A stretch of DNA of 64,000 bases from Schmidtea polychroa. Lineage: Eukaryota. The stretch spans positions 204,600,001 to 204,664,000 of the forward strand of contig CM097885.1 of NCBI GenBank assembly GCA_044892525.1, written 5' to 3'. Shown in pieces: positions 26,591 through 40,690 of the stretch; position 1 is the stretch's first letter; each line of letters opens with the position of its first letter. A model generated the notes under the pieces. That model ran no database searches. It worked only from the letters and a program-made list of their open reading frames with translations, and was not told where the DNA came from. Both the position numbers and the translations under genes were made by a program.

Positions 26591-29500
26591 AAAGGAACCA
26601 CGGAGAAACTAAATCTCAGATCCTCAAGTAAGTCAAGAGACGTATTATTTTCAGGAGACGAACTAGAACAGCTCAGAAGAGGACGATCCATAAAACAGCA
26701 AAGAGGAAGATCACAAGGAGCAAAAAGAACAAATCAAGTACCAACATTTGACCAAGAAAACCTCGGATACACCCCTAGTCGATCTAGAAGCAGAGAAAGC
26801 CTATCCGATATAACAAACAACCTAACCGGGTCAACAGAAGAATTATCCGTCCATAATTTAGCGACATCGCTGGAAAATTTAAAAGAAACAATAAAGTTAC
26901 AAGAACCAGTCATGATGAATGTGGTAAAAACCGACGAGTATAAAGAAAAATTTAGAGGCGAACCGTTTAACGGGAATGCGAACAAGTTGGCAACGTTCAT
27001 AACAAATTTTGAAGTCTATATCGATGTGTGCGGATGGACAGCGGAAGCAATTAGCAAACGAATGCCTCTGTTTTTGTGCGATAGCGCACTCGAAGTGTAT
27101 CTAGAAGCAAAAGAAAGAAATACGAAATTAGACAATTGGGAAAGCATCAAAACATTTTTGAGAAAAACATTCGGGGCCAGCAAACCAATAAATCAAGCCC
27201 TAGGAGAATTAGCGAGTAGAAAACAAAGAGCAAATGAATCAATAACGTTATACGCAAGCGAATTGCGAAGATTGGCAAAGAAGGCCATGAACGGAAACTT
27301 GCCGGAGGAAAATCTAATTGGTTATTTCATAGAAGGACTACGCCGGGAAGAGGTAAGAGCCTCGGTGGGATGTCAGATGTGTAAAACACTAGAAGAGGCC
27401 ATAGATTGGGCCACAAGATGCGAACTACACCTCCCGGCACAAATGAATGTCATGCAGGAGGAGGGAAGAATCGCAGCAGCTACGGTGAAAACAGAAAATG
27501 GAGATAACAACAATCATGAACCCAAGATGAATCAGTTCATACCAGGTGCGCACCAAATTTTCAAACCACCGCAAGGACGATCAAACGGGAATAACAGTGA
27601 ACGCAACAACTCGAACAATGGAAATAATTTTAATAATCGACGAAATACGAACGATAACAAACAATGCCGAACATGCGGTAAACCAGGACATTGGGATAGA
27701 GATTGTTACCGAAACGCAAATTGTAATAGATGCGGACGACGAGGACACACGGAAAATATATGCCAATTGAGAGGATGCTTTAACTGCGGTCAGCCAGGTC
27801 ACATCTCAAGAGATTGCCGAGAAAGGGGCCAACAACAACGACCACCACAACGAAACAATAATTATGCACCTAATCCGCAACGACAAAGTAACCCCAGTGA
27901 AGGAAAGCAAATGAACGTGATGCAAGAAATTTCACAAATGAAACAGATGATGCAACAAATGATGAGACCGAGACAAGAACCAGTAGCACAACAAACTCAG
28001 AATATACGCATGATGAGGAGCACCGAAAATCTTAACAATTATGAAGTACAACAACATGCACAAGAATGGCAGAGACTACAAGCTGAGGAAGAGAGAATAA
28101 AAAGAGAGCGAATTCAGCAGCGACAAGAACAACCATTACGAATAAATATGATGAGAATCGTAAAAGAAATAAAGGAGCAATATTGTTACAATTATGGTAA
28201 AAATCCAAGAGTTGTACCTATGATCGAACCAGAGAAGCCGAAAGAAACGGTTACAGAAGATAAAAAGGAAAATCCAACAACACCACTAAAGGGAAATCAG
28301 AGAATCCAGAAAATATTTTGGAAAAAGATAAAAGATAAGATCGAAAGAGAACATGAGAAAACAAAAACAGAAGCAGAAGCGATAAATGACGGAAACGAGA
28401 AACAAACTAGTCATTTAACCCATGAAATGGTACAAGAATTAGAATCGGAAGAATTAACGATATTTGAGAATAAAAAGCTCAAGAAAGTATCAAGAATGAG
28501 AAATTTACGAATTAACATGATGAGGACGACAAAGAAGGTATTGTCAACAGATGACGAGGAGGATTATGTGAGTAGCCTTGGTGGAGAAATATTACAGTTA
28601 AATGAAAATATCGAACAACTAAAGAAAAAGATCGGAGAAGATGAGGATGAAAGTGAAAGCGATGTGACAAGCGAAAGTGAAGATGAGAATATCGAGATGA
28701 AACTGAGAAAGGAAAAAGAAGAAGCGATAAAACAAGTAAAAGAAATACTTCCAGTGGTGGTAAGAAACCAGGATTTCATTGACATCATACCATACAGACG
28801 CTTCATACAAAAGATAATGAAACTGGAAAGAAACGAAAAAGATTTAATACCAAGCGAGGAGAAAGCGATAATAAAGAAGTATATGGAAAAAATGAAACAA
28901 GCGGAGACAACACGCTACGTAATAAAAATCGGAACGAGTAAAGGACTCGAGAGAATATGGATAAAAAATACAGTTACAGACGATCTTTTCGATTGGATAA
29001 GAGAACATTTGGGTAATTCAAGAAAGAAAGAATATCTGTATCAATATCAAGGAGAACAAATCAAACCAGACATGCACCTAATAGATGCATTGATCTGGCC
29101 AGGAGAAACTCAAATATTGAAGTTGCATAAAGAGAAGCAACCAGCTAATGTTCATGAATGGGCTAAAGACGCCAAGGCTGAATACGATTTCAATATCAAG
29201 CTGAAATTGGAACAAATAAAACAATGCACTTTAAGGCGGAATCTAGATAAACTAATCAAACAAATTCAAGAACAAGTCGAAGATAACTGGGATTTGCTCA
29301 TAGCAAGACGAACTCCAGATATGCATGAACTAATGAGCCGACTGCGAGATACAGAATTGCTCCGAATGAGCGATTGGAGAACCATAAATTTGATCCACAA
29401 ATACGGAAGACTAAAAGAAACGCAACCGCAGAAATTGGAAATAACCATATGGCTACCAAACGAGGAGAAACGACGAATAAAAATGAGTAATCAGAATACG

Positions 29501-40690: not shown

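Follow-up and report, generated by a model that had tools for sequence, protein, structure and literature searches.

Structure of the element and its surroundings

The analysed window is a stretch of DNA of 64 kb, and all positions given here refer to it. It harbors an element of 30,084 bp from LTR to LTR, which contains no N stretch (Table 1). Paired TG...CA LTRs with a target duplication, a tRNA primer site and a PR-RT-RH-IN order with a gypsy-type RNase H and an H2C2 integrase (Pfam) assign it to the Ty3/gypsy elements. It represents a virus-like, giant Ty3/gypsy LTR retrotransposon of the Burro type in a slightly decayed state.

Table 1. Features of the element, in order of position in the window
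Feature	Position	Strand	Evidence or remark
4-bp target-site duplication	19891..19894 (left), 49979-49982 (right)	.	
5' LTR, 4,064 bp	19895..23958	+	TG...CA ends
LTR ORF, 253 codons	22656..23417, second copy 48676-49437	+	no family found
Primer-binding site	23966..23983	+	18/18 complementary to 3' end of host tRNA-Pro(TGG) + CCA
Upstream accessory ORF, 159 aa, C-terminal C3HC4 RING	24392..24871	+	PF13920 E=1e-8
Family polyprotein frame, 4,619 codons	26912..40771	+	broken in window copy at 29846, 32354, 40688
Gag capsid (Retrotrans_gag)	27065..27346	+	PF03732 E=5e-10
Three CCHC zinc knuckles	27662..27814	+	translation; PF00098 E=2e-12
Private stop 1 (TGA)	29846..29848	+	sense codon in 39/39 siblings
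Ubiquitin-like domain, below Pfam cut-off	30386..30532	+	PF00240 E=4.5e-4, PF11976 E=0.039
Candidate Bcl-2-like domain, directly 5' of Env signal	31121..31630	+	PF00452 E=0.023; dN/dS 0.01
Predicted internal signal peptide 1	31709..31777	+	hydropathy peak 1.40; identical in 38/39 siblings
Env ectodomain, class III fusogen	31778..33436	+	PF24664; model pLDDT 87.7
Private stop 2 (TAA), within Env	32354..32356	+	sense codon in 39/39 siblings
Predicted Env membrane anchor (TM1)	33449..33505	+	hydropathy 2.53; basic residues follow
Weaker hydrophobic stretch after TM1	33551..33607	+	hydropathy 1.41; basic residues both sides
Aspartic protease	34091..34366	+	DTG 34133-34141; PF00077 E=1e-7
Possible dUTPase-like linker, weak	34451..34810	+	PF00692 E=0.21; placed as in PMC6431247
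Reverse transcriptase + RNase H	35030..36082	+	YIDD 35351-35362; PF00078, PF17917, PF17919
Integrase zinc finger + core	36404..36922	+	PF17921, PF00665
Ankyrin-repeat region	37538..39460	+	PF12796 E=1e-18
Predicted internal signal peptide 2	39770..39826	+	hydropathy 1.68; 1.43-1.76 in 39 siblings
Predicted second membrane anchor (TM2)	40574..40630	+	hydropathy 2.03; 1.77-2.07 in 39 siblings
Private stop 3 (TGA)	40688..40690	+	sense codon in 39/39 siblings
Family stop codon of polyprotein	40769..40771	+	used by 38/39 siblings
Short accessory ORF, no assigned function	40940..41299	+	same stop in 37/39 siblings; dN/dS 0.17
Separate TRAF-like gene (RING, zinc fingers, MATH), other frame	41389..42777	+	PF22486 E=3e-25
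Two charged, coiled-coil-like accessory ORFs	43056-44033, 44207-44932	+	no Pfam match
Accessory ORF, N-terminal and central hydrophobic stretch	44977..45651	+	translation; varies among copies
3' LTR, 4,067 bp	45912..49978	+	TG...CA ends

Two 901-bp probes yielded 314 and 321 first-look candidates for further copies, 40 of which were scored for each probe. The copies compared here, referred to as siblings, are the 39 non-self copies among 40 scored matches, each aligned with the window in separate stretches. A second set (n=29), which overlaps the first, was picked on the region around the first stop codon. They were drawn from the best Env or the highest-scoring matches, with tandem and duplicated copies among them; due to the selection for Env matches and two tandem pairs, sibling counts are not independent draws. 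The members of these pairs (L003/L004 and L029/L030) lie 26.4 kb apart, as expected for tandems sharing one LTR. A 16-nt primer-site pattern had 1,084 genomic matches, which may count other families or tRNA genes, versus 0 for a control. The family is both young and abundant.

The target duplication measures 4 bp in 23 of the 25 siblings that have LTR pairs of normal length. The primer site begins 7 nt past the 5' LTR (spacer 23959-23965), and its 17-mer is found in 37 of 39 siblings. Directly next to the 3' LTR, at 45905-45911, lies a short T-rich word that resembles this spacer; no clean polypurine tract was evident. The tRNA-Pro(TGG) genes form a long tandem array with a period of 475 bp (G000:C1, ~130.90-130.95 Mb), and the array pattern has 2,190 matches genome-wide. 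The arrayed tRNA-Pro(TGG) is the likely primer tRNA of the element.

On the minus strand, 5794-12492 is occupied by the broken-up LTR of a related family, which aligns in four blocks at 74-78% identity. It is likely an old solo LTR interrupted by insertions, and its copy of the LTR ORF has a one-base gap. An ORF with a DUF4371 domain (16725-18047, E=6e-18) adjoins an N stretch and is likely a DNA-transposon remnant. A 14-bp tandem array lies at 610-1411, a cluster of AT-rich direct repeats of 120-430 bp at 55251-58221, and a Ser-rich open stretch of 262 codons without a Pfam match, possibly a host exon, at 2869-3657. The segments 50272-50540 and 14264-14553 form an inverted pair of an 83%-identical repeat that ends in a GC hairpin and CTAG, and so resembles a Helitron 3' end.

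A single frame under purifying selection

The stop-to-stop segments 26591-29848, 29849-32356 and 32357-40690 all share one frame. This confirms an earlier sequence-only reading of the window, in which three ORFs in one frame were described as parted by the TGA at 29846-48 and the TAA at 32354-56. All other stop-to-stop ORFs of the window are shorter than 480 codons, and thus the giant frame is not due to chance. The length proposed in that reading, ~4,600-4,700 codons, holds, but both limits move. The first in-frame methionine is at 26912 and not at 26591; 38 of the 39 siblings carry an ATG either there or at 26915. The third stop, at 40690, was rejected as the true end of the polyprotein, as 38 of 39 siblings terminate at 40769-71; the family frame is therefore 26912-40771. 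The third stop had been overlooked in the earlier reading, as had a second signal/anchor pair near the C-terminus. The order of domains in the frame is Gag, three CCHC knuckles, Env, PR, RT, RH, IN and ankyrins.

Values of dN/dS were pooled over window-sibling pairs, which are not independent of each other. They amount to 0.03 for the capsid, 0.04 for the knuckles, 0.01 for the Bcl-2-like region with signal 1, 0.04 for Env, 0.00 for PR and 0.02 each for RT-RH and IN. The linkers and the Env tail range from 0.08 to 0.10, followed by the ankyrins (0.15), the second signal/anchor cassette (0.17) and a low-complexity linker of 90 codons (0.48). Counts of shared alleles agree with these values; Env has 95 synonymous and 6 non-synonymous ones. 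As judged from the sequences, this pattern shows that the whole frame appears to be translated in the active lineage.

The region directly upstream of the Env signal is likely a Bcl-2-like domain, as judged from PF00452, its sole Pfam match. A single-sequence model of it reached a pLDDT of 55.5; a fold search with this model gave no match at E<=0.001, and Bcl-2/Bcl-xL chains appeared at ranks 29-36 only. No homologs of 93-298 aa and no solved-structure match were found for this region.

The envelope glycoprotein

PF24664 is the fusion glycoprotein family of Monjiviricetes. It matches on both sides of the second stop, with profile positions 3-207 before and 244-579 after it, which bears out the earlier statement that the TAA cuts the glycoprotein in mid-domain. 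A search with the ectodomain, in which an X was set at the break, recovered 891 representatives at E<=0.001. The model built from a 119-sequence alignment (pLDDT 87.7) matched herpesvirus gB in the PDB (Foldseek, E=4e-14, TM ~0.4), and its best match in BFVD was a chu-like virus G (Foldseek, E=8e-41); the Env profile also matches gB weakly by sequence (E=0.003). These matches place Env among the class III fusogens of chuvirus type, with a gB-like fold. Its ectodomain contains a single N-glycosylation sequon and lacks a furin-like site.

Env and Pol are also joined in unbroken proteins of distant relatives. Fourteen long relatives were chosen by hand from the search matches, plus two stand-alone ones. 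Six of the long relatives carry Env and RT in one protein, five Env and protease, and three Env only. One relative (P0001, 4,029 aa) begins with a Gag-like part and extends to an anchor at the C-terminus. In P0001-P0006 and P0019, two to four aspartic-protease-like repeats follow Env, and some of these proteins have one more after the integrase.

It is rather unlikely, though worth weighing, that Env serves an intracellular job, as an assembly scaffold or in cell-cell fusion, and that there is no extracellular infectious particle. The few glycosylation sites would fit such a role, the literature search yielded no particle evidence, and the very young LTR pairs are equally compatible with intracellular transposition. 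However, the modelled class III fold is complete, its cysteines are conserved, and selection on Env is as tight as on RT and integrase.

Accessory genes and the expression of the frame

Several genes lie outside the giant frame. The LTR ORF is open over 253-259 codons in 26 of 39 sibling 5' LTR stretches. Compared with a related LTR, its mismatches by codon position are 0.17/0.08/0.53 at 78% protein identity. This coding pattern of divergence suggests that the LTR ORF is under selection; a homolog search found none of 139-443 aa. The upstream RING ORF is full length in 35 of 39 siblings. No BIR was found in the proteins scanned with Pfam, this ORF included; it may be a RING-only ubiquitin-ligase cargo that differs from the RING + BIR reported for Burro1. 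Downstream of the frame, the TRAF-like gene ends at the same stop in 27 of 39 siblings (dN/dS 0.13), and dN/dS of the ORF at 44977..45651 is 0.36 (15 siblings). The TRAF-like gene and the four other downstream ORFs lie in frames of their own or after stops.

The downstream ORFs require a route such as splicing or subgenomic RNAs. It is unlikely, but conceivable, that the parts of the giant frame are also made mainly in this way or by early polyadenylation, with the full polyprotein as a minor product and Gag in excess. In retroviruses and gypsy elements, Gag normally far outnumbers Pol, which favors this explanation. Synonymous variation among siblings is low at 40412-40770 (observed/expected 0.21), directly before the accessory ORFs, and weak dips occur at 31322-31441 and 32792-32911. 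The dip at 40412-40770 is possibly a promoter or splice signal, or a result of recombination. However, the dips are modest after correction for multiple testing and could be explained by recombination or by the choice of siblings, and the frame stays open, with purifying selection across every linker. Six conserved in-frame slippery heptamers are uninformative in an A-rich, young family. Contigs of four sequencing runs (three guessed to be RNA, one of unclear kind) are likewise uninformative on splicing and expression: the pieces are short, and none of the 15 joints listed lies in a guessed-RNA run.

Stop codons of the window copy

The LTRs of the window copy differ by 18 substitutions in 4,064 sites, i.e. 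by 0.44%, close to the ~0.5% of the sequence-only reading. This predicts 31 substitutions in the frame and ~1.5 nonsense changes, in keeping with the one to two that had been expected; three are present (P(>=3)=0.20). The first stop site is also sense in 29 of 29 copies of the second set. The alignment of siblings thus upholds the claim of a single Gag-Env-Pol frame with stops acquired after insertion. Lesions were counted in the 38 siblings covered to more than 97% in both halves; one was excluded for large indels. No stop or frameshift was found in 14 of them, a single lesion in 9 and two to five lesions in 15. Only two stop sites recur in more than one sibling. Among the 33 dated siblings, neither the lesion count (rho 0.14, p=0.43) nor the number of private lesions (rho 0.18, p=0.33) showed a significant trend with LTR age. 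The missing trend may speak against simple decay, and it may reflect the narrow age range.

That assembly errors introduced the three stops into a copy that is intact in all other respects is very improbable. The reads covering these sites in the window copy are not separable, which leaves room for this explanation, but the copy is the oldest seen (0-0.35% LTR divergence in the 33 dated siblings), and its frame has 34 private sites versus 31 expected, so that three stops are within expectation.

Programmed readthrough at TGA 29846, raised earlier for the TGA-CGA context, would set the ratio of Gag to Env-Pol, and the position of this stop between Gag and Env would fit. The notion has a negligible chance of being right and was rejected for the sampled copies: the site is sense in every copy of both sets, the stop is private to the window copy, and the three siblings that have a stop 12 nt away also share both flanks and are thus duplicates of one insertion.

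Predicted topology and processing

Topology was predicted from a 19-residue hydropathy scan with a threshold of 1.4. Five segments were obtained, at 31721-77, 33449-505, 33551-607, 39770-826 and 40574-630. Signal 2 and TM2 bracket ~250 residues near the C-terminus and are both hydrophobic in 39 of 39 siblings. The same predicted succession, signal-Env-TM and then signal-TM after the integrase, occurs in all four relatives that reach past the integrase (P0001, P0005, P0009 and P0016). The second ectodomain sequence has no N-glycosylation sequon; it shows no significant similarity to those of the relatives, nor do these to each other, and no significant match to known families was found (best Atlas match 0.80, a lead only).

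The third segment, at 33551-607, is likely a membrane-associated surface helix of the Env tail, as suggested by its flanking basic residues and by the weak counterpart in 98 glycoproteins of stand-alone length (median hydropathy 1.17; >= 1.3 in 35 of 98). It is the weak point of the topology model, since a membrane-spanning helix here would place Pol in the lumen.

It is established that retroelement polyproteins are processed by the aspartic protease they encode. The motif [IVM][NCG][MLVY][MLI], which was chosen after inspection of the sequence, occurs 10 times in the polyprotein versus 3.2 expected (3 of 500 shuffles). It is never found in the 17% predicted to be lumenal, and its occurrences are kept in 37-39 of 39 siblings. 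Its sites include the capsid end, the position after the knuckles, the RNase H/integrase border and the positions after the integrase and before signal 2. Among five relatives, the motif is enriched in only one (P0003, 19 of 500 shuffles), in which four of six copies precede copies of the protease. As a guess, these sites could be cleaved by the protease of the element.

The family keeps Gag, a class III Env and Pol in one frame, and these are probably made as one polyprotein, predicted to be threaded through the ER and cut apart. The threading inferred in the sequence-only reading agrees with hydropathy, Env fold and relatives, and its standing is still that of a prediction. Points against it are the modest hydropathy of signal 1 (1.40), the sparse sequons and missing furin-like site of the ectodomains, the unmatched sequence of the second ectodomain and the post hoc choice of the cleavage motif. 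In this model, Gag and its cargo would be synthesised in the cytosol, and signal 1 would direct the Env ectodomain into the lumen. A cut by signal peptidase would leave the Gag-side piece, which ends in the Bcl-2-like domain, tethered to the membrane. TM1 would halt transfer, so that PR-RT-RH-IN-ankyrin would stay cytosolic on the Env tail, and a further, small membrane protein of type I would arise from signal 2 and TM2. The protease of the element would free the cytosolic parts at the recurring hydrophobic motif. Co-packaging of Gag and Pol in an enveloped particle would rest on their anchoring to the membrane that carries Env and not on frameshifting or splicing.

A more far-reaching version is put forward tentatively, as possible but short of an even chance. 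The element would be a flavivirus-like enveloped retroelement whose chain enters the ER twice, with a tethered Gag/Bcl-2 piece, a fusogen with a Pol tail, and a freely swapped second surface protein of type I, without sequence relation from lineage to lineage, acting as an attachment or immune-decoy factor; its core would need no frameshift, readthrough or splicing.

Comparison with known elements

Burro / GYPSM1 elements are reportedly described in Grohme 2018 and Jurka 2007, as cited by Arkhipova and Yushenova 2019. According to the latter (PMC6431247), these gypsy-like giants, known from Schmidtea mediterranea and Dugesia tigrina, are LTR retrotransposons of ~30 kb with one ORF of 4,600-5,100 aa, in which gag and pol flank an in-frame env of the mononegavirus type. 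The single-frame Gag-Env-Pol layout of the window is thus real but was published in 2019 for planarian Burro elements, and the novelty implied in the sequence-only reading is not supported. Both share a length of ~30 kb, LTRs of several kb, a Gag with three CCHC knuckles, the position and type of env, a cargo of ankyrins and TRAF/MATH, and a single giant ORF. The window frame (4,619 codons) is slightly shorter than ORF1 of Burro (~4,900-5,100 aa), because TRAF lies outside it. Ubiquitin-like (E=4.5e-4), BCL2-like (0.023) and dUTPase-like (PR-RT, 0.21) matches, all below Pfam cut-offs, occur at the places described for Burro. The assignment to the Burro type rests on such described features.

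MATH/TRAF is located inside ORF1 in Burro1 and upstream in D. tigrina, whereas it forms a separate gene downstream of the polyprotein in the window. Burro1 ORF1 has a BIR (B-IAP) and MATH, whereas no BIR match was obtained among the window proteins scanned and MATH lies outside the frame that corresponds to ORF1. The predicted internal signals, the second membrane protein and the LTR ORF of the window are not mentioned in the Burro section of PMC6431247, in the part available. Other papers mention giant Burro elements (PMC11410931), a rise of BURRO1 RNA on smedwi-2 knock-down (PMC8532177) and protection of stem cells by the RING-BIR cargo of Burro1 (Lee et al. 2026, cited in PMC13465017). By its likeness to these elements, the family probably has a planarian host, a tractable regeneration model in which its relative Burro1 is reported, at second hand, to affect stem-cell survival (PMC13465017).

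GAG-ENV-POL elements of the gB type were described from Nematoda, Bryozoa and Platyhelminthes, six of them from S. mediterranea, by Chary and Hayashi (eLife 2026, PMC13524379). Smed_errantivirus_1-6 share with the window the GAG-ENV-POL order, a gB-type Env and a Ty3/gypsy Pol; on visual comparison, Smed_errantivirus_5 has the Env row nearest to that of the window. In that paper, the six are described in terms of ORFs, neither LTRs nor a primer tRNA are listed for them, and the words 'polyprotein', 'fused' and 'single ORF' are absent from the main text. In the window, the class III Env lies between a predicted signal and TM and upstream of Pol, which is the mark of gB-type errantiviruses. The chuvirus-type glycoproteins (PF24664) are the source family of the window Env, but those are stand-alone genes of ~650 aa. 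Anakin elements, which belong to BEL/Pao, are said to carry chuvirus-type glycoproteins (Dezordi 2020). The window Env is part of a Ty3/gypsy element, in contrast to Anakin as cited in PMC13524379.

Double-threading topology, second membrane protein and LTR ORF were not found in the literature searched; figures, Grohme 2018, Lee 2026 and supplements may show them. Less known features of the window are the predicted second signal-anchor pair after the integrase, the separate downstream TRAF gene and the selected ORF in the LTR. The window contributes population-level proof of a single frame that is selected throughout, and a testable processing map. In flaviviruses and alphaviruses, internal signals thread a single polyprotein chain through the ER, and signal peptidase together with a protease encoded in the chain itself processes it. 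The window polyprotein would work by analogy with these, without homology, as it belongs to a reverse-transcribing element. If double threading is true, enveloped particles of a retroelement could be built in this way with neither frameshift nor splicing.
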